Source: an uncultured bacterium (GTDB taxonomy: Bacteria > Hydrogenedentota > CAZGCA01). Taken from it: a DNA stretch of 64,000 bases. Below the pieces are notes generated by a model. That model ran no database searches and was not told the DNA's origin. It saw only the letters and a program-made list of their open reading frames with translations. This document shows, piece after piece, positions 722 to 19,340 of the stretch. Within the stretch, counting starts at the first letter, position 1. Each line of letters starts with the position of its first letter. The stretch is from NCBI GenBank assembly GCA_964524145.1, contig CAZGCA010000005.1:31038-95037 (forward strand), written 5' to 3'. Made by a program: the position numbers and the translations under genes.

Positions 722-1042
722 ATGAACGCAAGAACCCAGTCTATTCTGGCTGAACTGCGCCAGCGTTTCGAGGCGGTTTATGCCCAGCGGTTGGTCCACA
801 TGATGCTCTTCGGTTCCCAAGCCCGCGGAGAGGCTGAGGAGGGATCGGACATTGATGTGCTGGTGGTGCTGAAAGGCCCGGTAGACCCTGGCGAGGAGAT
901 AGCTCGCACGGGTGAGATTGTTGCGGACCTGTGTCTGGCTCACACGGTGGTCATCGCGTGCGTTTTCATGGACGAACAGAGCTTCTTGCGCCGACAGGGG
1001 CCGCTCTTGAGGAACGTCCGCCGTGAGGGTGTTGCCGTATGA
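722..1042 (+). CDS. Nucleotidyltransferase (MNT) domain protein, antitoxin-like partner of a HEPN/MNT pair
   Basis: GSQARGEAEEGSDIDVLVVL is a minimal nucleotidyltransferase GS...DxD motif. It is a 106-aa protein whose stop overlaps the next start by 4 bp (ATGA). Confidence 0.7.
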   Translation: MNARTQSILAELRQRFEAVYAQRLVHMMLFGSQARGEAEEGSDIDVLVVLKGPVDPGEEIARTGEIVADLCLAHTVVIACVFMDEQSFLRRQGPLLRNVRREGVAV

Positions 1043-1440
1043 CTGAAGACCAGCACGATCTTCTCGTAAAGGCACGGGACAGTATAAAGGCTGCCCGAGT
1101 GTTGCTTTCCGAGGGTTTCCCCGGATTCGCCGTGTCCCGAGCCTACTATGCAATGTTCTACATTGCACAAACCTTCCTCGAAGGCGAAGGGCTCTCGTTC
1201 TCAAAGCATTCGGCAGTTATAGCTGCGTTCGGCGAGCACTTTGCTCGGACTGGTCGCGTGCCCGCCCAGTTTCATCGCTTCCTGCTCGAAGCTATGGAGT
1301 TGCGACATGAGAGCGACTATGCACCACGGCGGACCATTAGCGATTCGCAGGCAATCGAGCAGATCGACCGCGCAGAAAGCTTCCTCGAACTTGGCAATAG
1401 CCTGATCGGTCCTGCATCCGACAGTCTGACCGACCATTAA
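1039..1440 (+). CDS. HEPN domain protein (toxin-like partner)
   Basis: AYYAMFYIAQTFL...SKHSAVIAAFGEHF...ELRHESDY is the HEPN R-x4-6-H/DY signature. It is translationally coupled to the upstream MNT gene. Confidence 0.7.
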   Translation: MTEDQHDLLVKARDSIKAARVLLSEGFPGFAVSRAYYAMFYIAQTFLEGEGLSFSKHSAVIAAFGEHFARTGRVPAQFHRFLLEAMELRHESDYAPRRTISDSQAIEQIDRAESFLELGNSLIGPASDSLTDH

Positions 1441-3733: not shown

Positions 3734-5050
3734 GTGGGGCGAGATTCTCGACAGATGAGAAGACGCGGACGATGGATCCTGCTGGGGGCGATCGGCGTGG
3801 TGGCGTGCCTGGTTGTTGCCCACAACATCCTCGACTCGATAACCGAGCGGCGACGGGATGAATCCGTCGCGCGCCTGCAAGAGAAACTGGCGGCCCTTAT
3901 CCCGGAGTTGCAACCCGGCGGTGACGAGAACCACCCGCTGGGCATGCGTGCCCAAGCTGAGCAAGCCGCGTCGACATCTGGAGACAGAGCCGCGTATCCA
4001 CGAGGCGTTGCAGTGAGCTGGGAACATCTCTTCTCGCTGCTGGACGAAAGACTCTGCCTCAAGCCTAACCAGGGAATCGACGAGGTGTTCCTGATGGCGA
4101 ACCAGGATCTCATTCACGAAATCTGGGAACTGGCAGAACTTGGGGTCCCGCCCGTTGCAGGCGAGGCGTTAGAGGACCCGGTTGAGGAGATGTGCTCGTT
4201 TCCTGATGAGCAGGATTTGAAGTACTGCATGAGACTGCTCCGAGAAGATGCGTTTATGAAGGCTGCACAGCAGGACTATCCCGATACGGTCCGAGACATC
4301 ATCGCCTGGATGAAGCTGGGCGATACGCTCGACTATCCATTGACATACAGTCTGCAACTGCAGGTGATCATGGAGGAAGTCCTGCCTGATGCGTTTGAAG
4401 ACGGGAACACGCCGCCGGACATTACGCACGCACTTCTGACACAACTGGCCGCCAGCCGCAACCGAGAGATGTTCAAAAAGGTTTTCGTGACACAGACGAT
4501 GGATATCGGCGAGGAGATGTCCTCCATCTTCCATCCCCCTCTGGAATCGGACCCGGGGAACTGGGTCTTGGCAGCGCTGTTCCGCCCGTGGTGCAACATG
4601 AATGAACAGACCTACGCCGAGAAAGCGGACCAGTTGGCGGATTTGGTGGATCTTCCCTACTATCAGGCGGAACCAAAGCTGACGGAGATCCGCGCGGACT
4701 TGGACAGCGTTCCCCGGTCCCGCTTCGTATCCGCCGCCTTCCTTTCTTACGTGTGTAACCTTTTCGAATCTGAAGCGGACCATGAAGCCCGGCTCGATCT
4801 CGCGCGGATGGCCGTCGTTCTCGAACAACACCGCGCCCGGCACGGACAGTATCCGGACGCGCTCGATGCCGTCGCGCCGGATTTGGGCGGGGCCCTTCCT
4901 GTCGATCCGTTTACCGGCGAACCGTACCACTACGAACCTTCGGGCGACAGCTTCCAGCTATACAGCGTCGGCTCGAACCGTGTCGATGACGGCGGCAGGC
5001 AGGCGACAAGGGACGGCGACATCGCCTGGCGCGGCCGGGACGAAGAGTGA
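3734..5050 (+). CDS. Membrane-anchored hypothetical protein with one N-terminal TM and a C-terminus resembling the pseudopilin GspG tail
   Basis: TM segment WILLGAIGVVACLVVAHNIL. The C-terminal DPFTGEPYHYEPSGDSFQLYSVGSNRVDDGG resembles the GspG/type IV pilin C-terminal DPWGxPY...G.DG motif. There is no prepilin leader. Confidence 0.35.
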   Translation: MGRDSRQMRRRGRWILLGAIGVVACLVVAHNILDSITERRRDESVARLQEKLAALIPELQPGGDENHPLGMRAQAEQAASTSGDRAAYPRGVAVSWEHLFSLLDERLCLKPNQGIDEVFLMANQDLIHEIWELAELGVPPVAGEALEDPVEEMCSFPDEQDLKYCMRLLREDAFMKAAQQDYPDTVRDIIAWMKLGDTLDYPLTYSLQLQVIMEEVLPDAFEDGNTPPDITHALLTQLAASRNREMFKKVFVTQTMDIGEEMSSIFHPPLESDPGNWVLAALFRPWCNMNEQTYAEKADQLADLVDLPYYQAEPKLTEIRADLDSVPRSRFVSAAFLSYVCNLFESEADHEARLDLARMAVVLEQHRARHGQYPDALDAVAPDLGGALPVDPFTGEPYHYEPSGDSFQLYSVGSNRVDDGGRQATRDGDIAWRGRDEE

Positions 5051-5140
5051 GCACGGACTTCAATCGTGGAGCCGGTATCCTGTAGGGCGGGAAATGGGTC
5101 TTTATTGTAGAACCCGTTCTGATTCGAGGCGCGAGTTGAA

Positions 5141-6418
5141 ATGGAAGAGCTCAAATCGTTGGTCGAGAGGTCTCGTTCCAGCGACGTGGAAGCGTTCGGA
5201 CAGATCGTGCGGCGATTCCAAGACATGGCCTGCGGGTATGCCTTCTCGATCCTCGGCGATTTCCACCTGGCTGAGGACGCGGCGCAGGAAGCCTTTATCG
5301 AGGCGTATCGCCAGTTGCCGAAGCTGCGCGACCCGGATGCGTTTCCCGGCTGGTTCCGCAGGGTAGTGTTCAAACACTGCGACCGTATCAGGAGACGCCG
5401 GCGCGTGGGTACCGTCTCTCTGGAGGCGGCGTCCGACGTCGCAGCGGAAGGCGCGGGACCCGTTGAGGCTGCCGAACAGCGCGAGCTGCGAGACACTGTG
5501 CTCGGAGCGATCCGGGCCTTGCCGGAGCATCAACGAACGGCGACCGCGCTCTTCTACATCAACGGGTACTCGCAGCAGGAGATCGCCGAGTTTCTGGATG
5601 TTCCGGCAACGACGGTAAAGAAACGCCTCTACGATTCACGGCGGAGGCTGAAAGAAAGGATGCTCACGATGGTTGACGAAACGCTGAAAGCCCACGCACC
5701 GACCGACGAGTTTCCCGAGCGGATCCTGCGATTGCTTCGCGCACCCAAACCGCTCGAGATTCAGGGGCACCCCGTGCGTGAGGTATGGGAGGACGTACGT
5801 GCAGCGTTCGAAGGATGGCAGATTGTCGAGGGTACGGAGATAGAGTCGGCATCAGCTTTCCGCCGATATCTGCGCCTCTCTCCAGGCAAAGAAACGAGCT
5901 ACCAACTCATCGAGTTTGGTGACCGAGTCCTTAGGGCAACAACCACGAGTACTATCATCCAGGCGATGAGTTCTCGCACACCCCCGTTCAAGGTACTTTG
6001 CGCGGGACGGGTGTTCCGGGACGACGGGCCCAATCCAAAACACTACCCCATCTTCCATCAAGTCTCTGGAGCGCATGTCGGGCTGGGACTCGACGAGGAG
6101 AAGGAGGTAGAAGAGCTTCGCCTGACTCTCGAGCAACTCGCCGGCAGCGGTCGCGTGGCGGCAACAGAACACGAATATCCCTTCGTAAGAAGTCGAGGAT
6201 GGGAGTTGTACATCGAACAGGGGGACAGACGCCAGAACGTGGCCGGCGCGGGACTGCTCCTGCCAGAGATCGTCCAAGAAGCTGGATTGAGCCCGAAGCG
6301 GGTACAAGCCTTCGCGTTTGGCTTTGGCTTAGAGGCACTAGCGATCTGGCGCATGCAGATCGACGACATCCGCAAGCTCTGGCGGCCACCCTACGTGCCC
6401 AAAGAGTCGGACGCATGA
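5141..6418 (+). CDS. ECF (sigma-70 family) sigma factor fused to a C-terminal PheS-like class II aminoacyl-tRNA synthetase catalytic-core domain
   Basis: Residues ~1-95 match sigma-70 region 2 (ECF pattern FGQIVRRFQDMACGYAFSILGDFHLAEDAAQEAF). Residues ~130-180 match region 4 (QRTATALFYINGYSQQEIAEFLDVPATTVKKRLYDSRRRLKE). Residues ~200-425 align with the PheS core: LRATTTSTII ~ LRTHTSPVQI; PPFKVLCAGRVFRDDGPNPKHYPIFHQVSG ~ PPIRIIAPGRVYRNDxDATHSPMFHQVEG (motif 2); AFAFGFGLEALAIWRMQIDDIRKLW ~ [25 protein letters not shown] (motif 3, but with Arg replaced by Ala). Confidence 0.6.
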   Translation: MEELKSLVERSRSSDVEAFGQIVRRFQDMACGYAFSILGDFHLAEDAAQEAFIEAYRQLPKLRDPDAFPGWFRRVVFKHCDRIRRRRRVGTVSLEAASDVAAEGAGPVEAAEQRELRDTVLGAIRALPEHQRTATALFYINGYSQQEIAEFLDVPATTVKKRLYDSRRRLKERMLTMVDETLKAHAPTDEFPERILRLLRAPKPLEIQGHPVREVWEDVRAAFEGWQIVEGTEIESASAFRRYLRLSPGKETSYQLIEFGDRVLRATTTSTIIQAMSSRTPPFKVLCAGRVFRDDGPNPKHYPIFHQVSGAHVGLGLDEEKEVEELRLTLEQLAGSGRVAATEHEYPFVRSRGWELYIEQGDRRQNVAGAGLLLPEIVQEAGLSPKRVQAFAFGFGLEALAIWRMQIDDIRKLWRPPYVPKESDA

Positions 6419-8102: not shown

Positions 8103-8762
8103 ATGCTACCATTTAGTGCGAAAACTTCGTGCAGCACCCGGCATTTTGGCACTAGTACGGACGACGACCGACAGAGCGTGGAAGCGAAGGCTACGAGCGA
8201 GAAGGGGAGCAAAGCTCCAGACAACAAGACCGGACGACCGAGCGTGCTCAACCGCGAATCGGTAGTGTTCGTGGTGGTGTTTCTGGTGACGGTTGTTGCC
8301 GTATTTGTCCTTTACGAGTACATAAAGGACACCAAGCCGATGGCGCGCTACGTGGAGCTGATCTCGGGGCACGTGGGTACGGTTCTGCGTCTGAGCGGCA
8401 GAGACACGGTTGTCCGCGGCGATCGCGTCACGATCAAGCTGGACAAGAGTGATGCGAGCAAAAGGGCCCGGAGGTGGACGATGCAGGTTATCCCCGACTG
8501 CGGCGCTATTCCGTCGATGGCCATCTTTTGCGCCGCCGTGCTTGCGTTCCCTACCGGGCTGAGACGCAAGCTGCTCGGGGTGCTTATCGGGGTACCGTTG
8601 TTGTATGTCGTCAACGTCGGCCGACTTGTGTGCCTGGGCCTGGTCGGTCTGTATTATCGGAGCGGATTCCATTTTGCCCACGTCTACGTGTGGCAGTCGA
8701 TCTTCATCGTGTTTGTGGTCGTGATATGGATGGTGTGGGTCGATAAGGTAGCGAAAGTGTGA
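8103..8762 (+). CDS. Exosortase/archaeosortase-family protein (compact; true start uncertain, possibly near 8342)
   Basis: ISGHVGTVLRLSGRDTVVRGDRVTI ... VIPDCGAIPSMAIF resembles the exosortase G...Gn.i.l...V.eaCSG active-site Cys region. The downstream VVNVGRLV matches the conserved N-x-x-R motif. It is polytopic and hydrophobic. Confidence 0.5.
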   Translation: MLPFSAKTSCSTRHFGTSTDDDRQSVEAKATSEKGSKAPDNKTGRPSVLNRESVVFVVVFLVTVVAVFVLYEYIKDTKPMARYVELISGHVGTVLRLSGRDTVVRGDRVTIKLDKSDASKRARRWTMQVIPDCGAIPSMAIFCAAVLAFPTGLRRKLLGVLIGVPLLYVVNVGRLVCLGLVGLYYRSGFHFAHVYVWQSIFIVFVVVIWMVWVDKVAKV

Positions 8763-9307
8763 AGGAAGGCGGGCTGTTTCTAGCGAAGTTTCTGGTCTTT
8801 GCAGCGATCAGCCTTGCAGTCTTCAGCTTCGCGCTGAAACCGTACGCCTATGTTCTTATGTACGTGAGCGATGCGGCGGGCCGTGTAGCGATGGGGTACG
8901 ATATTTCTGAGCGACGGGTTGAGGGCAGCGGCGTCGGCACTGAGATAACGTTTGTTTATCGCGATGAGACGCGGCGGTTGCCGGCAGGGATAGTGGCGAT
9001 AAACGTGCCGCCGTTCTTGGCGCTCATACTTGCCGACCGCAAGTTACGGTGGCGCGAGAAACCGTTGACTCTTGGAATCGGGATGCTCGTGCTGTTTGCA
9101 AGCCACGTGCTGCTCGTATTTCTGGCTCTTGTGCTGGCGACGTCATTTCGCATTGTGGGCTCAAGCGGACTGGCCCAGGGAGTGGGTACCGTCACGTTGG
9201 CCCTGCCGTTCGTGTTGTGGATATTGCTAGTGCGTCGGGACATGATTTCGCGTGGATTCACCAAGAACGGAGACAAGACGGAGCGTGCAAATGAAGCTGG
9301 TGCGTAA
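8759..9307 (+). CDS. Polytopic membrane protein, possibly the functional partner or other half of the exosortase-like protein
   Basis: 4-5 predicted TM helices and no recognisable motif. Its start overlaps the upstream stop. Confidence 0.35.
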   Translation: MKEGGLFLAKFLVFAAISLAVFSFALKPYAYVLMYVSDAAGRVAMGYDISERRVEGSGVGTEITFVYRDETRRLPAGIVAINVPPFLALILADRKLRWREKPLTLGIGMLVLFASHVLLVFLALVLATSFRIVGSSGLAQGVGTVTLALPFVLWILLVRRDMISRGFTKNGDKTERANEAGA

Positions 9308-14185: not shown

Positions 14186-17100
14186 CTAAATAAGCGCCAA
14201 CGCCGCGTTTATTACCAACTGCACATCCAAGGCGTTTACTTGTCCGTCTCCATTCACGTCCGCGTCAAAATTGCCGATGTCTATTCCGAGTGCGGCGTTG
14301 ATCACAAGTTGTACGTCTAATGCATCTATGTGATCGTCACCGTTAATGTTGCAGTTGAAAACCGTTACGGGGTCGCTGGGGCCGGCCGCAGGGGCGAGGT
14401 TACCGGCGGCGTCTGAGGCTGTGTCAGCCCCGAGCGATATACTGAGCGTACCTCCACCGGAGATATTCGAGATAGTGACTGTACGCGTTGTATTGCCGGC
14501 GCCGGACACCGTAACAACACCATTGGCCGTATCGGTTCTGTTCAGGACAACATCGTTCCAAGTCAACACCACGTTATCGGCTTCGCCGTATGTAACCGTA
14601 TATGTAATTTCCCGGGTAGCCGTAAACTCCGCCGAAGGTTCTCCGATCGAAACCGTGGGTGGCACAGTATCGAGTACGATCGTGTCGCTGAAGCTGGTTG
14701 ACGTGTTCCCAAGCGTGTCGCGGAATTGGACATACACCGTTTTCTCGCCGTCACCGGCAGTGAGTGTCCAAGGCGTGGACGCTGAGAAATCCTCCCATTC
14801 GTCCCACGTGGTTCCATCGCTGCTCAACCGCATGTCGGCTACACCTATCCCATTTGTGCCGTCTGAGGCGGTCAGGCCGACTGTAACATCGAGAGTGTTC
14901 GTATAAGTCGCACCACTATTGATAACGATAGTCCCCGTTGGCCCTGTCGTGTCCAGGTTGATGCCATCGGTTACGGTTTGGGAAATGTTGTCAGCGGCAT
15001 CCCGGAACTGGGCGTAGACGATCTTCGGGCCATCACCTGCCGAAAGGGTCCATGTTTTGCCGGTACCGACGGCTTCCCACGAACTCCAGTTTGTGCCGTC
15101 ATTGCTAAACCGCATATCTGACACGCCGGAACCGGAACCGTCGCCCGAGCTCAAGGTCAACGTCACGTCCGACGAGCTGGTCCAGTCCGCCCCGCCGTCA
15201 ATCGTTACCGTGCCGGTAGGCGCGGTGGTATCCAACGAGATCGTGTCTGTCGCGGTGGCCGACACGTTGCCGGCGTTGTCTTTGAACTGTGCGTAAACTG
15301 TCTTCCCTTCATCAAACGCGTAAAGGGTCCACGTTTTGCTGGTTGCGACTGTTTCCCACGAACTCCAATCTGAGCCATTGTTGCTGAACCGCATCTGGGC
15401 TACGCCGGACCCATTGCCATCGCTATACGCCAACGCGAGCGTAACGTTTCTGCTATCGGTCCACGCGGCTCCCCCGTTAATTGTTATGCCACCGGTAGGC
15501 GGCACGGAGTCCACCGTTACTGAAGCGCCCGTCGCCGCATTGGCGTAACCCCCGGCCGTATCCCAGGCTGTTCCTGCCGCAACCTCGATATGCAGACGCC
15601 CTTCACCCCAACAGTTGGTCAGCGTTACCGTGCGCGTCGTGTTGCCGTCACCCGACAACTCGACCGTCGCGCCCGCGGCATTTTCCGGAGCGGAAACCAG
15701 GGTAACATCGGCCGCTTCGAGCAAGATATCCGTCGCCCCCTCGTAAGTAAGGATATATTCCACCGGCCCGGAGGCCGTGGCTGTCGGCACGGGTCCCGTA
15801 ATCGTCAGTACCGGCGGCGTGTTGTCCACCGTGAACGTGCCGCTTGGCCCGATTGCCGGAGCGGTTGTGCTGCCCGCGTATGTCGCCGTGCCCGCAGCAA
15901 TAGTAATGCCGAGCGTCCCGTCTCCCGTTATGTTGCTTATGACGATCTTCTTCGCCAACGGTTCAGCCGTATCCTCGACCGTTACCGTCCCGTTGGCCGT
16001 GCCGGTCTTGTTCAAAGTGACGTTTCCAGCCGCCAGATTGACGCTGGTCGCGCCCGGATAGGTCACAGTGTAGTATACCGGCCCCGATTTCGTAATGGTC
16101 TCCGAAGGCGCGCTCAAGCCCACCATCTCGTCACCCACAACTATCGTATAGTCGCCCTGAGCCGACAGGTTGCCGTGTACGTCCTGCGAGACGATATGGA
16201 AATAGTAGACCCCGTCCGGTTTCCCGAACTCATTCCACGTGTAAAGGTCCGTGCTGTCCGGCGATACCGCCGTCACAGTTGTCGATACGGTCTGATCGAA
16301 AGCAAGATGGAACTTGGGCGTACCCGTGGCGAACGAGTCCGGATCGGTCCAGGCAAACCCTATGTTGCTGGTGTTTGATGTCGGGATAACCTGCACGTGC
16401 GGCGGCCGTGCCTCGCGGATGCGCACCGCAAAATGTGTCGGCGCCGTCAGGTGGCCGCAATCGTCCGTCGCAATCAGGTGCAGGAAATACCGGCCCAGCG
16501 AAAGATTGGTCACCTCGAGCGTCGCCTCCGCCGTGCTCGTGCTGCCCGCCGTCGGCACGCTATAGGGGCTGCGATCCCACACGTAGTAGTAGGGCGCGCC
16601 GGAAGCCGGTGCGGGCGTCCACGCCAACGCCACGTCCCGGGCGGCATACGCCGTGTGCGGGTCCACGTGCGTGCTCGATGTCACCACCGGCCCCGGTGTC
16701 GCGCCGACCGTCACCTTGCGTTCCGCCACAGGAGACAGGTAGCCCCACGTGTCCTCGCTCTGGACCAGAAACCAATGGACGCCGGATTCCACACAACCGA
16801 ACGTTACGCTCGTTTCCGTGGTTGTCGTCGAGGGCGTAGCGCCTTCGCTCGTCCCCCAGGCGTACCAGTACTTCACCACGTCCGGCACACCGCCGTCGGT
16901 CCACTCGAACGTTACCTCGACCCCGGAACCGCGCGTGTTCTCGTCAGGATGTGTCGGAGAAGACACTACCGGCGGTGCGTCGGTGACAATGAACTTATAA
17001 TGCGCCGGCGCGCTCAAAGTCCCCGCCGCGTCCATGGCGACCACGTGGAACCAGTAGGTGCCGGGGGCAAGGCCCGGCGTTATCGTAATGAGTGCAGATT

Positions 17101-19117
17101 CTGAGAACGTGTCTCTCGCGTCCGGAATCGTGTCGGGTACACTATCCTGGACGTAGTAGTAACCGGGGATAGTCACCTCTTGGGGTAACACGAAGCCGGA
17201 TCTCCAGACGTCGTTAGTCGAAGTGGGACCCGAAGAGCCGCATGTCCCTCCGCCTAACACCCATAACATGTTCTGAAACGCCACCGCTCCATGCCCCCAG
17301 CGGTACGACCACGGTGCATAAGCCCTTTCTTGCGTCCATGTTATGCCGTCTGGGCTGCTCCAGATATCTCTCATGGCAACATCGCTACAGTATTGTGGGT
17401 GGCTCCAATCTCCGTGTCCGCCCAGTACCCATAGTTTCTCCTGGAACGCCACCACCCTATGGCTCCCGCGCCCAGACCAGCCTGCGTCAGCCGTTTCTAG
17501 CGTCCATGTCCTGCCGTCCGGGCTGCTCCAGACGTCGTTCTTATAGCTACCTCCCAACACCCACAACTTGTTCTGGAGCACCACCGCCTGATGGCCCGCA
17601 CGCCTCCCGCAGCCTGCATCAGCCGTTTCCAGCGTCCATGTCCTGCCGTCCGGGCTGCTCCAGACCTCCTTCTGGGCTCCGTAGTACTCGGGTCCTCCCG
17701 GATTTCCAGCTCCGCCTAACACCCACATCTTGTTCTGGAACACAACCGCCTGATGGCCAGCGCGCCCCGGCCATTCTGCGTCAGCCGTTTCCAGTGTCCA
17801 TGTCCTGCCGTCCGGGCTACTCCAGACGTCGTTCCGATAGCCACCACCTCCCAGCACCCACACCTTATTGTGGAACACAACCGCCGGAGCCGCCGCCCAT
17901 TCTGCGTCAGCCGTTTCCAGTGTCCATGTCCTGCCGTCCGGGCTACCCCAGACGTCGTTCCGATAGCCATCACCTCCCAGCACCCACAATTTGTTCTGGA
18001 ACACCACTACCTCGTGCGCTCGCCGAGGCGACCAGCCTGCGACCGCCGTTTCCATCGTCCAACTTTTCCCGTTAGCCGCGGTTCCGATCTGTGCCTGAAA
18101 CACCTTGTTTGACGAGGGGGTGTGCGTGTCGGGGTGGGATGGGCTGTAGACATATAACCCATCGAGGTACACATTAACGTGGTGGTTCCTCTGCGACCCG
18201 TCGATGATCTGGCGGTCTGTCCCGATGACGGCGATATGGAAGTACCACGCGCCGGTGTTTGTCGCCGTATACTGGACGGTCTTCGGGTCGGCCGCGTCGC
18301 GGAAAGTTCCGCCGGTATCCACGACGGTATACCCGCTCTGATCCATGACCCATAGATAGCCATAGAGGTCTGCCCCTGCCATATAGTTTGTATAATCCAC
18401 GGTCACATCCGGACTGCAATACCATTTAGTGCTGTCCGGATGACTGGGCGAATACAGCGGCAGACGGTCCTGGAACCAGTCCGGGACGCCATCGCCGTCA
18501 GCGTCTTCAAACCCGTCGGAGACACCGTTGCCGTTCAGGTCCTGGTAGGCGTCGGGGATGCCGTTACCGTCGATGTCCTCGAAGCCGTCTGGTAGACCGT
18601 TGCCGTCGAAATCCTGGGCCGCGTCGGTGGTACCGTCCTGATCGAGATCGAATATATCGTCCGGTGTGCCGTCATCGTCTACGTCCAACCATTCCAGTCT
18701 GGTGTCTATCTCGAACAGGTCTGATTCGGGCACGCTGCTGCCGCCCGCAGCCGGAACGCTTTCCAGAAGCACCGCCGCTTCAGCGATCTGGCGTTCCGGG
18801 TGATCGTTGTAAACATGCCAGACGACCATGTTGTCCTGGCCCGGCTGGACATCATCGCCTATGTCGCCATAGACAGTACTGGCGGTAAGGTCGTACGAGA
18901 GTGCGCCATCGTCGCTGGCCGACAGACTCAGTGTCACCGGCCCTGACGGCGTGACGGACAGATCATAAAAGATGCGTACGAAACTACCGTATTGTTCTGC
19001 TTCAACATAGGTAATCTCGACCGTTTGCGCATGGACGGAACTTGTCCTCCCCAACACGGCAAATACCATAACCGACAGGACTAAACCACGCGCTAAGAAA
19101 CGACATGCCGATTTCAT
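14186..19117 (-). CDS. Giant secreted surface protein (about 1640 aa) with TSP3-like Ca-binding repeats, a Kelch beta-propeller, Ig-like modules and a C-terminal double dockerin
   Basis: Signal peptide MKSACRFLARGLVLSVMVFAVLGRTSSVHA. D-x-D-x-D-G repeats (DVDDDGTPDD...DQDGTTD...DGNGLPDG...). Six or more Kelch-like units (VVFQNKLWVLGG...RNDVWSSPDGRTWT). Three ~85-aa near-identical Ig-like modules. It ends in two dockerin type-I segments (DVNGDGQVNALDVQLVINAALALI). Confidence 0.75.
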   Translation of the reverse strand: MKSACRFLARGLVLSVMVFAVLGRTSSVHAQTVEITYVEAEQYGSFVRIFYDLSVTPSGPVTLSLSASDDGALSYDLTASTVYGDIGDDVQPGQDNMVVWHVYNDHPERQIAEAAVLLESVPAAGGSSVPESDLFEIDTRLEWLDVDDDGTPDDIFDLDQDGTTDAAQDFDGNGLPDGFEDIDGNGIPDAYQDLNGNGVSDGFEDADGDGVPDWFQDRLPLYSPSHPDSTKWYCSPDVTVDYTNYMAGADLYGYLWVMDQSGYTVVDTGGTFRDAADPKTVQYTATNTGAWYFHIAVIGTDRQIIDGSQRNHHVNVYLDGLYVYSPSHPDTHTPSSNKVFQAQIGTAANGKSWTMETAVAGWSPRRAHEVVVFQNKLWVLGGDGYRNDVWGSPDGRTWTLETADAEWAAAPAVVFHNKVWVLGGGGYRNDVWSSPDGRTWTLETADAEWPGRAGHQAVVFQNKMWVLGGAGNPGGPEYYGAQKEVWSSPDGRTWTLETADAGCGRRAGHQAVVLQNKLWVLGGSYKNDVWSSPDGRTWTLETADAGWSGRGSHRVVAFQEKLWVLGGHGDWSHPQYCSDVAMRDIWSSPDGITWTQERAYAPWSYRWGHGAVAFQNMLWVLGGGTCGSSGPTSTNDVWRSGFVLPQEVTIPGYYYVQDSVPDTIPDARDTFSESALITITPGLAPGTYWFHVVAMDAAGTLSAPAHYKFIVTDAPPVVSSPTHPDENTRGSGVEVTFEWTDGGVPDVVKYWYAWGTSEGATPSTTTTETSVTFGCVESGVHWFLVQSEDTWGYLSPVAERKVTVGATPGPVVTSSTHVDPHTAYAARDVALAWTPAPASGAPYYYVWDRSPYSVPTAGSTSTAEATLEVTNLSLGRYFLHLIATDDCGHLTAPTHFAVRIREARPPHVQVIPTSNTSNIGFAWTDPDSFATGTPKFHLAFDQTVSTTVTAVSPDSTDLYTWNEFGKPDGVYYFHIVSQDVHGNLSAQGDYTIVVGDEMVGLSAPSETITKSGPVYYTVTYPGATSVNLAAGNVTLNKTGTANGTVTVEDTAEPLAKKIVISNITGDGTLGITIAAGTATYAGSTTAPAIGPSGTFTVDNTPPVLTITGPVPTATASGPVEYILTYEGATDILLEAADVTLVSAPENAAGATVELSGDGNTTRTVTLTNCWGEGRLHIEVAAGTAWDTAGGYANAATGASVTVDSVPPTGGITINGGAAWTDSRNVTLALAYSDGNGSGVAQMRFSNNGSDWSSWETVATSKTWTLYAFDEGKTVYAQFKDNAGNVSATATDTISLDTTAPTGTVTIDGGADWTSSSDVTLTLSSGDGSGSGVSDMRFSNDGTNWSSWEAVGTGKTWTLSAGDGPKIVYAQFRDAADNISQTVTDGINLDTTGPTGTIVINSGATYTNTLDVTVGLTASDGTNGIGVADMRLSSDGTTWDEWEDFSASTPWTLTAGDGEKTVYVQFRDTLGNTSTSFSDTIVLDTVPPTVSIGEPSAEFTATREITYTVTYGEADNVVLTWNDVVLNRTDTANGVVTVSGAGNTTRTVTISNISGGGTLSISLGADTASDAAGNLAPAAGPSDPVTVFNCNINGDDHIDALDVQLVINAALGIDIGNFDADVNGDGQVNALDVQLVINAALALI
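17250..18070. repeat. Tandem near-identical 126-135-bp coding repeats (Kelch units) inside the giant surface protein gene
   Basis: Repeated DNA blocks such as cagccgtttccagtgtccatgtcctgccgtccgggctactccagacgtcgttccgatagcc recur with a few mismatches. The antisense ORF 17242..18075 also shows a periodic peptide. Confidence 0.8.
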
Positions 19118-19340
19118 AGAATATCCCTCCCGATAACCTGATTGAAGCACCTTCTCATATCCAAGCAATTACATTACTGTACTCGACTATAAACCAAAGC
19201 ACCTCCTACGTCAAGCATCGCGCCGGTAGTCCCGAGACATGGGTGATGTCCAGGTGCCCACAAACTGGCGGCGGGGGGAAGATAGGTGTTATAATTCAAT
19301 AAAGAGACCGAAACGCTTAGAAAACCAGGGGGTGATAACG

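Follow-up and report, generated by a model that had tools for sequence, protein, structure and literature searches.

An extracytoplasmic function sigma factor fused to a PheS-type class II synthetase core, and the many-tailed sigma clade to which it belongs

In a stretch of 64,000 nucleotides from an uncultured Hydrogenedentota bacterium (contig CAZGCA010000005.1 of assembly GCA_964524145.1, positions 31,038 to 95,037 of the forward strand), hereafter termed the window, one gene encodes a genuine extracytoplasmic function (ECF) sigma factor joined to the catalytic core of the alpha subunit of phenylalanyl-tRNA synthetase (PheRS), PheS. The open reading frame (ORF) occupies positions 5141..6418 of the + strand and is complete, running from ATG to TGA over 425 residues. 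A regulatory role of the PheS-like domain in cis is the most reasonable reading of this fusion. By analogy with known ECF sigma factors, we put the probability that the domain acts as a built-in regulator instead of an anti-sigma factor at about 55%.

The protein consists of a sigma module, a helical connector and a synthetase core. The sigma module comprises region 2 (residues 22-88, positions 5204..5404, +), which is matched by Pfam Sigma70_r2 with E=2.8e-11 and forms helices with a high predicted local distance difference test score (pLDDT) in the model described below, and region 4 (residues 120-170, 5498..5650, +), which contains the helix-turn-helix that reads the -35 element and is matched by Sigma70_r4_2 with E=3.2e-12. 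The protein is also matched by Pfam Sigma70_ECF, and its N-terminal half falls within the ECF superfamily of NCBIfam (TIGR02937, 85.7 bits against a cut-off of 42.9); none of the specific NCBIfam sigma models scores above its cut-off, the closest named ones being SigW and SigM. Region 4 is followed by a two-helix connector of 28 residues (residues 172-199, ERMLTMVDETLKAHAPTDEFPERILRLL, 5654..5737, +), the helices of which span residues 172-184 and 190-199 in the model. The connector is specific to the sigma clade and occurs in all of its fusion types, with M177, V178, L182 and F191 nearly invariant in the PheS-type family and in proteins with other tails alike. The C-terminal extension of 225 residues, which is conserved in every listed family member, contains the catalytic core of a PheS-type class II aminoacyl-tRNA synthetase (aaRS; residues 206-416, 5756..6388, +), matched by Pfam tRNA-synt_2d (PF01409) with E=2.2e-29 and 103 bits against a cut-off of 19.8. 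No further domain was found after residue 416, either by Pfam or in the model.

Sequence search against the PDB assigned residues 4-174 to SigW (5wuq) and residues 210-414 to PheS alpha (6p8t). A model of the fusion protein was predicted by AlphaFold2 from 133 family sequences, with a mean pLDDT of 89.4 and a predicted template modelling score of 0.70; only the stretch that links sigma-2 to sigma-4 (residues 89-103) has low confidence. Structural similarity search of this model against the PDB using Foldseek revealed PheRS alpha chains at all of the top ranks. The C-terminal domain could be superimposed onto Escherichia coli PheS (3pco_A and 6oz5_A) with a root-mean-square deviation of 1.9 Å over ~212 columns and a template modelling score of 0.78. 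The family profile likewise matches E. coli PheS with E=5.7e-43, the GRVFR/GRVYR and FHQ motifs lying in register. The initial annotation, made from the DNA letters alone, had proposed a 425-residue ORF with ECF regions 2 and 4 followed by a PheS-like core; the PDB search agrees with that proposal, as do the three expected types of Pfam domain and the close fit of the predicted structure onto PheS.

The same architecture recurs in a widespread family. A homologue search over 5.8 billion proteins gave 1446 matches, of which 120 were listed; all 120 combine the sigma module with PF01409, at lengths of 388-443 residues and identities of 44-60%. Among the matches listed, the named sources are metagenome-assembled genomes (MAGs) of Planctomycetota, Armatimonadota and Hydrogenedentota, with the nearest named homologues in Planctomycetota MAGs (48-49% identity). 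A scan of species-representative genomes located the fusion in Hydrogenedentota (L006), in Phycisphaerae (L007) and, over its full length at 27% identity, in a Labilithrix (Myxococcota) MAG (L040). The MAGs GCA_039683595.1, GCA_039679645.1 and GCA_964402555.1, each complete or nearly so, also encode it. Public records name these proteins solely as "sigma-70 family RNA polymerase sigma factor".

Comparison of the window gene with its closest relative gave proportions of nonsynonymous (pN) and synonymous (pS) differences of 0.25 and 0.68 for the sigma module, and of 0.22 and 0.84 for the PheS-like domain, the last value being saturated. Both halves of the gene are under purifying selection, with a ratio of nonsynonymous to synonymous substitution rates (dN/dS) well below 1. 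In the window lineage, the PheS-like domain shares 63% identity with that of the nearest relative, termed P0002, and 31-39% with those of other members, and the sigma module shares 60-77% with typical members and ~35-50% with the most distant representatives. The PheS-like domain of the window lineage has thus diverged yet is still constrained.

These data also bear on an artefactual origin, in which two genes would have been merged by misassembly or a frameshift, or a decaying pseudogene would have been taken for an intact gene. The sole lead in that direction is the degenerate active site of the window copy. Against it, the identical 425-residue protein, with the same flanks, is found on contigs from three separate Joint Genome Institute samples; the architecture is common to all 120 homologues listed; both halves show a dN/dS well below 1; base composition is even across the junction between the sigma module and the PheS-like domain; and the structure is predicted with confidence throughout. 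We regard an artefact as having a negligible probability. The initial annotation had named a chimera or frameshift as the finding that would overturn it, and the recurrence in three samples and in every listed homologue speaks for a single natural gene.

Residue conservation was derived from an alignment of 137 full-length members, numbered by the window protein. The His210-Pro211 pair of class II motif 1, which belongs to the dimer interface (5768..5773, +), is present in almost all members (H210 97%, P211 100%), and E233 is invariant or nearly so across the family. Motif 2, which the initial annotation had recognized as GRVFRDD, is confirmed at residues 289-295 (6005..6025, +) with both of its arginines; R290 and F292 are found in 100% of members and R293 in 92%. 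In the following FHQ segment, H306 is conserved in 94% and Q307 in 82% of members, and the next acidic residue is D or E in 93%. At this acidic position, corresponding to the Glu of the PheS motif FHQxEG, the window protein has Ser309 within FHQVSG (6065..6067, +), a residue shared by 2% of the family, as compared to D in 67% and E in 26%. In the Thermus thermophilus PheRS structures, the Glu at this position binds the substrate alpha-amino group.

Motif 3 reads GFGLEALAI in the window protein (residues 394-402, 6320..6346, +), where Ala399 (6335-6337) replaces the invariant class II Arg that is kept in 88% of the family. Loss of this Arg is seen in 16 of the 137 members, distributed over several lineages and including both the window protein and P0002; the combination of A399 with S309 is found only in these two proteins, which are 60% identical. 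The complete ATP-site set (R290, R293, E/D398 and R399) is present in 118 of the 137 members (P0003 and P0201 are examples with an intact site), and, judging from these residues, most members look able to bind ATP. The initial annotation had deduced from the replaced Arg that the domain is non-catalytic, which holds for the window copy but does not extend to the family. In the window copy itself, the ATP site is broken under strong purifying selection, while the fold and motifs 1 and 2 have been kept; this copy is thus most likely a pseudo-synthetase that no longer catalyses but retains a role in binding or docking. The pair of aromatic residues that contacts the Phe ring (FPF in PheS) is weakly conserved, with F or Y in 74%, P in 35% and F in 33% of members; Phe specificity is thus not implied, and the Phe-directed sensing envisaged in the initial annotation appears doubtful. 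At the C-terminus, the domain ends in a family-specific motif, LWRPPYVP (6377..6400, +; W414 89%, P417 92%, Y418 86%), which is absent from canonical PheS. The pattern W.PP[YFH] occurs within the last 30 residues of 101 of the 137 members.

When 1.84 billion cluster representatives were searched exhaustively using HMMER, the sigma module and connector (residues 1 to ~200, positions 5141-5737) proved to share 50-69% identity with many proteins of 185-968 residues that bear other C-termini. This level of identity holds across at least 10 phyla (P0130-P0269; L008-L039). In total, 269 proteins were compared, 147 with the PheS-like domain and 122 without it. Other tails with a length of at least 60 residues number 115 and fall into 53 BLAST clusters, corresponding to at least 53 tail types, and all partner domains start right past the shared connector, at about residues 197-200. 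According to Pfam, the tails comprise ankyrin, TPR and HEAT repeats, PQQ propellers, a bifunctional-nuclease domain, the Rho RNA-binding domain (P0136), FliG_C (P0239), FliM (P0253), a T2SSF fragment, T2SSF together with a whole T2SSE ATPase, GNAT, APH, PCMT and other methyltransferases; many further tails have no Pfam match. The longer partners include a PilB-type ATPase with a PilC-like fragment (P0156) and, in one MAG, a near-complete SecA motor that keeps its GEGKT and DEAD motifs (L009:670-3243). In named genomes, such proteins are encoded by continuous ORFs in Gemmatimonas, Poribacteria and KSB1 (ankyrin tails) and in Sumerlaeia (nuclease domain), and one Poribacteria MAG possesses at least two paralogues of the clade (L010 and L027). 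For an ECF module, this is a high degree of conservation across phyla, and it goes together with a great diversity of partners. The PheS-like domain is only one of dozens of alternative modules on the same sigma module, a setting that alters the reading of the fusion.

The clade also shares an upstream element. In about 30 of 39 non-redundant upstream regions of sigma-clade genes, irrespective of the tail, the same pattern is found at the same position: nnAACCTTT, a spacer of 12-13 nt, GGG(T/A)CTTTA and TAGA, often followed by the palindrome GAAGGCCTTC. This pattern is that of RpoE-like ECF promoters, which have AAC at -35 and GTC at -10. A two-block weight matrix was trained on 18 homologous upstream sites, with the window left out; across the 64 kb, it scores highest at 5075-5105. 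This site consists of the -35-like element GTATCCTGT (5075..5083, +), a degenerate form of the clade sequence nnAACCTTT, and the -10 element GGGTCTTTAT (5096..5105, +), which starts 12 nt past the -35 block, lies 36 nt before the ATG and corresponds to the clade consensus GGG(T/A)CTTTA of the GTC-type ECF class; no other -10 block on the window's + strand scores higher. The stop codon of the upstream gene lies 90 nt before the sigma ATG, so the predicted promoter fills the whole intergenic gap. A Shine-Dalgarno-like GAGG was read from the sequence 11 nt before the ATG (5126..5129, +).

Sites with the score of the window element are expected about 2e-4 times per 150-nt upstream region. Simulated 64-kb sequences reach similar maxima, so that the score alone is not outstanding genome-wide and the evidence for the promoter lies in its position and conservation. 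Throughout the window and 1.84 Mb of related loci, each strong matrix site is located directly upstream of a sigma gene. Nineteen of these 21 sites are the own promoters of clade genes, a count that is largely circular because 18 of them were training sites, and the remaining two are found upstream of ECF genes from Paenibacillus that are more distant. The shared ECF-type promoter suggests autoregulation of the sigma gene and, along with the TIGR02937 score above cut-off, points to a functional sigma factor. No sigma-70 promoter or terminator flanking the gene, and no T-box, riboswitch or other Rfam element at the locus, was detected above chance.

At the predicted transcription start region, the window carries an inverted repeat, AGAAC-CC-GTTCT (5109..5120, +), in the place where homologues often have GAAGGCCTTC; its arms are complementary though its sequence differs from that of the homologues. 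Downstream of the -10 element, the palindrome GAAGGCCTTC, sometimes in the form AGAAGGCCTTCT, is seen at L004, L007, L008, L018, L020, L022, L032, L086 and L088, and it is present at the predicted start of many clade genes regardless of the fusion partner. The palindrome could serve a second regulator as an operator, or it could be part of the start site.

We propose that the fusion is a self-activating ECF sigma factor that carries its regulatory partner in cis, the reading favored at the outset. The PheS-derived core, attached behind sigma-4 via the two-helix connector, would replace the anti-sigma factor, and would lock the sigma module in an inactive or active state according to its bound partner, by analogy with ECF41, ECF42 and ECF238. 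In most members, the likely input would be ATP together with a ligand resembling an amino acid, or the adenylate that the two form, as their nucleotide and amino-acid sites are intact; in the window protein and P0002, the domain would be a non-catalytic pseudo-synthetase serving as a binding or docking module. The observations behind this proposal are the architecture and its conservation, the residue pattern, the conserved ECF-type promoter and the lack of an anti-sigma-like gene in the six genomic contexts of family members; the initial annotation had pointed out that no such gene follows in the window, and the five other contexts bear this out.

Several points weigh against this proposal. 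We infer the regulation in cis, the ligand binding and the direction of control, and contact of the domain with sigma-2 and sigma-4 is itself a proposal. Class II enzymes need the motif-3 Arg for ATP, and since the window copy has lost it, the input suggested for the family may not apply there; the side-chain pocket also varies among family members. Other than the gene's own promoter, neither the window nor the DNA up to 6 kb from 85 related loci yielded a target promoter. Moreover, the fusions in which a whole motor enzyme is the partner, such as those with SecA and the PilB-type ATPase, fit protein docking better than simple small-molecule sensing.

Docking to PheT or another protein is indeed the main rival to regulation by a bound ligand. 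By subunit mimicry, the PheS-like core would substitute for PheS in binding PheT or a similar partner, and the sigma factor would be held or released by the assembly or abundance of PheRS. Under an extended version, the SecA, FliG_C, FliM, PilC-like, PilB-type and Rho-domain tails would enter their own machines likewise. PheS alpha works only when paired with the beta subunit, a dependence that favors docking, as do the invariant or nearly invariant His-Pro of motif 1 and E233, the purifying selection on a degenerate copy despite its broken ATP site, and the many clade partners that correspond to subunits of multi-protein machines, as fragments or as copies. Yet the ATP-site residues, needless for pure docking, are kept in most members, the canonical PheS C-terminus has given way to the family-specific LWxPPYVP, and many other partners are generic (ankyrin, TPR, methyltransferase and GNAT) and are not machine subunits. 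We consider docking unlikely on balance, both for the PheS-like domain and in its extended version, although it deserves to be kept in view. A bolder reading, to which we assign a slightly lower and clearly tentative standing, is a hitherto unrecognised modular sensing system in which a near-constant ECF module, apparently reading one promoter throughout, AACCTTT-N12-GGGTCTTTA (window site 5075-5105), has repeatedly been fused to copies of core cellular machines as integrated baits, which would report the assembly state of these machines or their inhibition by antibiotics, toxins or phage proteins and turn it into transcription. This reading, equally tentative in its scope, would cover the copies of PheS, SecA, the Rho RNA-binding domain, FliG/FliM and PilB/PilC-like proteins in addition to the repeat scaffolds. 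If true, bacteria would thereby have an equivalent of the integrated decoys that plant immune receptors carry.

Two further explanations start from the original activities of the synthetase. The domain might be an active ligase, adenylating or aminoacylating some acceptor, that is merely placed on RNA polymerase or co-expressed with the sigma factor and has no regulatory coupling to it. The catalytic residues of motifs 2 and 3 are kept in 86% of members, and the GNAT domain in family member P0122 and the GNAT genes beside the P0002 locus could hint at aminoacyl transfer. Such a tethered enzyme is improbable in our view, given that the window copy and 15 other members are conserved without the motif-3 Arg, that the domain scores far below the equivalog cut-offs of PheS and of the PheS-related ligase SrmL, and that no conserved acceptor or partner gene lies nearby in the six contexts; the variety of non-enzymatic partners on one sigma module also points to a common regulatory logic. 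The other explanation, taken from the GCN2 precedent put forward in the initial annotation, is a sensor of tRNA-Phe charging, in which uncharged tRNA on the PheS-like domain would switch the sigma factor. In PheRS, the anticodon and body of the tRNA are read by the beta subunit and the alpha coiled coil. The synthetase core, whose fold the domain shares, contacts the acceptor end of the tRNA, and aaRS genes lie near the fusion at L087 and L089. The tRNA-recognition modules of PheRS are missing from the PheS-like domain, which makes such sensing unlikely: it has neither the N-terminal coiled-coil arm of PheS nor an anticodon-binding domain, the beta subunit that reads the anticodon is not encoded nearby, pheT not being adjacent, and the locus bears no T-box or other RNA element. 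We give tRNA sensing a very low probability, below that of a tethered enzyme, and the GCN2 parallel is weak.

The genes around the fusion differ from locus to locus. Apart from the close relatives L086 and L088, the six contexts have no neighbour in common; the initial annotation had suggested searching metagenomes for homologous fusions and conserved neighbours, and the fusions proved widespread whereas conserved neighbours did not emerge. Directly upstream in the window (3755-5050, +) is a gene for a protein of 431 residues with an N-terminal membrane anchor, preceded by ~6 cytoplasmic residues, and no Pfam match; no homologue of it stands beside other family members. The upstream proteins of 515 residues at L088, 518 residues at L086 and 431 residues in the window, none of an assigned family, are unrelated across lineages. 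Further upstream, a GH43-like protein is encoded on the opposite strand. The genes downstream encode a MatE efflux protein, an exosortase-like protein, a BamD/YfiO-like TPR protein, lptE and holA. The exosortase-like membrane protein (8103-9307, +) is a weak match to Exosortase_EpsH (24 bits); its gene overlaps the next, for a membrane protein of 182 residues without a Pfam match, and the two are placed between the MatE and BamD/YfiO-like TPR genes. Neither pheS or pheT nor a sigma paralogue was found in the 64-kb window, and no pheS or pheT in the flanks of the six family loci.

Some recurrent neighbours were also observed. About 3.7 kb upstream of the fusion, at about 722-1440 (+), lies a toxin-antitoxin-like pair of NTP_transf_2 and HEPN genes, with coordinates taken from the gene calls of a matching locus that encodes the identical fusion protein (L001:1582-2300). 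A similar pair stands directly downstream of the fusion at an unrelated locus (L087:6317-7004); such pairs are common, and the recurrence is probably a coincidence. Genuine aaRS genes lie less than 5 kb from the fusion in two of the six contexts (L087:591-2105, L087:9217-10962 and L089:1-423), encoding a class II tRNA-synt_2 enzyme, a ProRS and a class I enzyme; none lies near the fusion in the window. GNAT genes are located just upstream of the P0002 gene (L004:3549-4877 and L005:841-1311), and P0122, a protein of 596 residues, consists of the sigma module, the PheS-like core and a C-terminal GNAT domain. As GNAT folds include aminoacyl-transferases, a link to aminoacyl chemistry is conceivable. 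A very long ORF of 1660 residues is found farther along the window (14186-19168, -). A phage or mobile origin was considered and rejected, since the sigma clade is essentially absent from 2.9 million viral contigs, which contain two distant ECFs alone (24-29% identity). Membership of the fusion in a defence system was also rejected, as no PADLOC model matches the fusion or its 431-residue upstream neighbour.

Among the major modes by which bacteria transduce signals, ECF sigma factors rank third, and those with a built-in sensor are attractive in that input and output share one polypeptide. A sensor derived from an aaRS would make the initiation of transcription respond directly to the status of amino acids or ATP, or to the state of the translation machinery, and neither an anti-sigma factor nor a kinase nor a riboswitch would be needed. 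The fusion adds to the ECF sigma factors a new class of extension, with an unusual modular family behind it, and this broader finding on the sigma family may outweigh the PheS fusion itself. From such a plug-and-play family, the rules by which fused domains control a sigma factor could be learnt, with possible use in synthetic biology, and complete genomes can be searched directly for the regulon by means of the promoter motif. The new, widespread PheS paralogue would also join a short list of synthetase folds reused for regulation.

Compared to PheS, the C-terminal domain has the same fold, with motifs 1, 2 and 3 in register and a family consensus, GRVFR...FHQxD, that is close to that of PheS. 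It differs in that a sigma factor stands in place of the N-terminal tRNA-binding coiled coil and LWxPPYVP in place of the PheS C-terminus, and the fusion protein reaches 85.7 bits with the PheS equivalog TIGR00468, below the cut-off of 237.45. The window copy has in addition lost both the motif-3 Arg and the amino-binding Glu; among the class II arginines of motifs 2 and 3, it fails at motif 3 (Ala399), whereas most other members retain the full set. SrmL (NF051887), annotated as a PheS-related "mystery ligase", is likewise a paralogue of the PheS core with no known function, and it matches residues 260-415 of the fusion. It is a stand-alone protein, whereas the core here is sigma-fused, and the fusion protein, at 68.5 bits against a cut-off of 300, is not a member of that family; no mention of SrmL was found in the literature searched. 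Two relatives of HisRS, namely the HisRS-like domain of GCN2 and the paralogue HisZ, by which ATP phosphoribosyltransferase is regulated, are similar in reusing a synthetase fold as a sensor or regulator and not for tRNA charging, and the degenerate site of the window copy parallels those of such pseudo-enzymes. Both belong to the HisRS family (class IIa), with a kinase or a metabolic enzyme as output, and the analogy is functional only; the fusion protein scores 24 bits with the HisZ model against a cut-off of 272. The HisRS-like region of GCN2 includes an anticodon-binding domain and senses tRNA, whereas the fusion has the catalytic core alone.

The closest precedents for the overall arrangement are found among ECF sigma factors that bear extensions at the C-terminus, namely ECF41 with a SnoaL-like domain (including SigJ of Mycobacterium tuberculosis), ECF42 with TPR, ECF238 (CorE) with a Cys-rich domain and ECF57 with a WD40-like domain (PMC8999054, PMC7826278). 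Fused extensions in place of anti-sigma factors are an established ECF mechanism, and these extensions are thought to set the conformation of the sigma factor via a ligand or a protein partner (PMC8999054, PMC7826278). The fusion described here resembles these groups in its sigma-2/sigma-4 core, in a C-terminal domain of more than 50 residues, in the absence of a cognate anti-sigma gene, a typical though not obligatory neighbour of ECF genes, and in its probable autoregulation, for which computation places an ECF-type promoter (AAC at -35, GTC/CGT at -10) upstream of its own gene, as is usual for ECF sigma factors. It differs in the nature of the extension, a class II aaRS core, which is not among their extension types. 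The initial annotation knew of no aaRS-like extension on an ECF sigma factor, in agreement with the classification papers and reviews searched: no tRNA-synthetase-like extension is described in the 2021 classification, the paper on ECF evolution or the 2022 review of non-canonical ECFs including its extension table, though a bare listing in the supplementary group descriptions of 2021 is possible. Nor did full-text literature searches find a published description of a fusion between a sigma factor and a PheS-like domain. Each of the known ECF groups has one type of extension per sigma group, whereas here one conserved sigma module carries dozens of unrelated tails.

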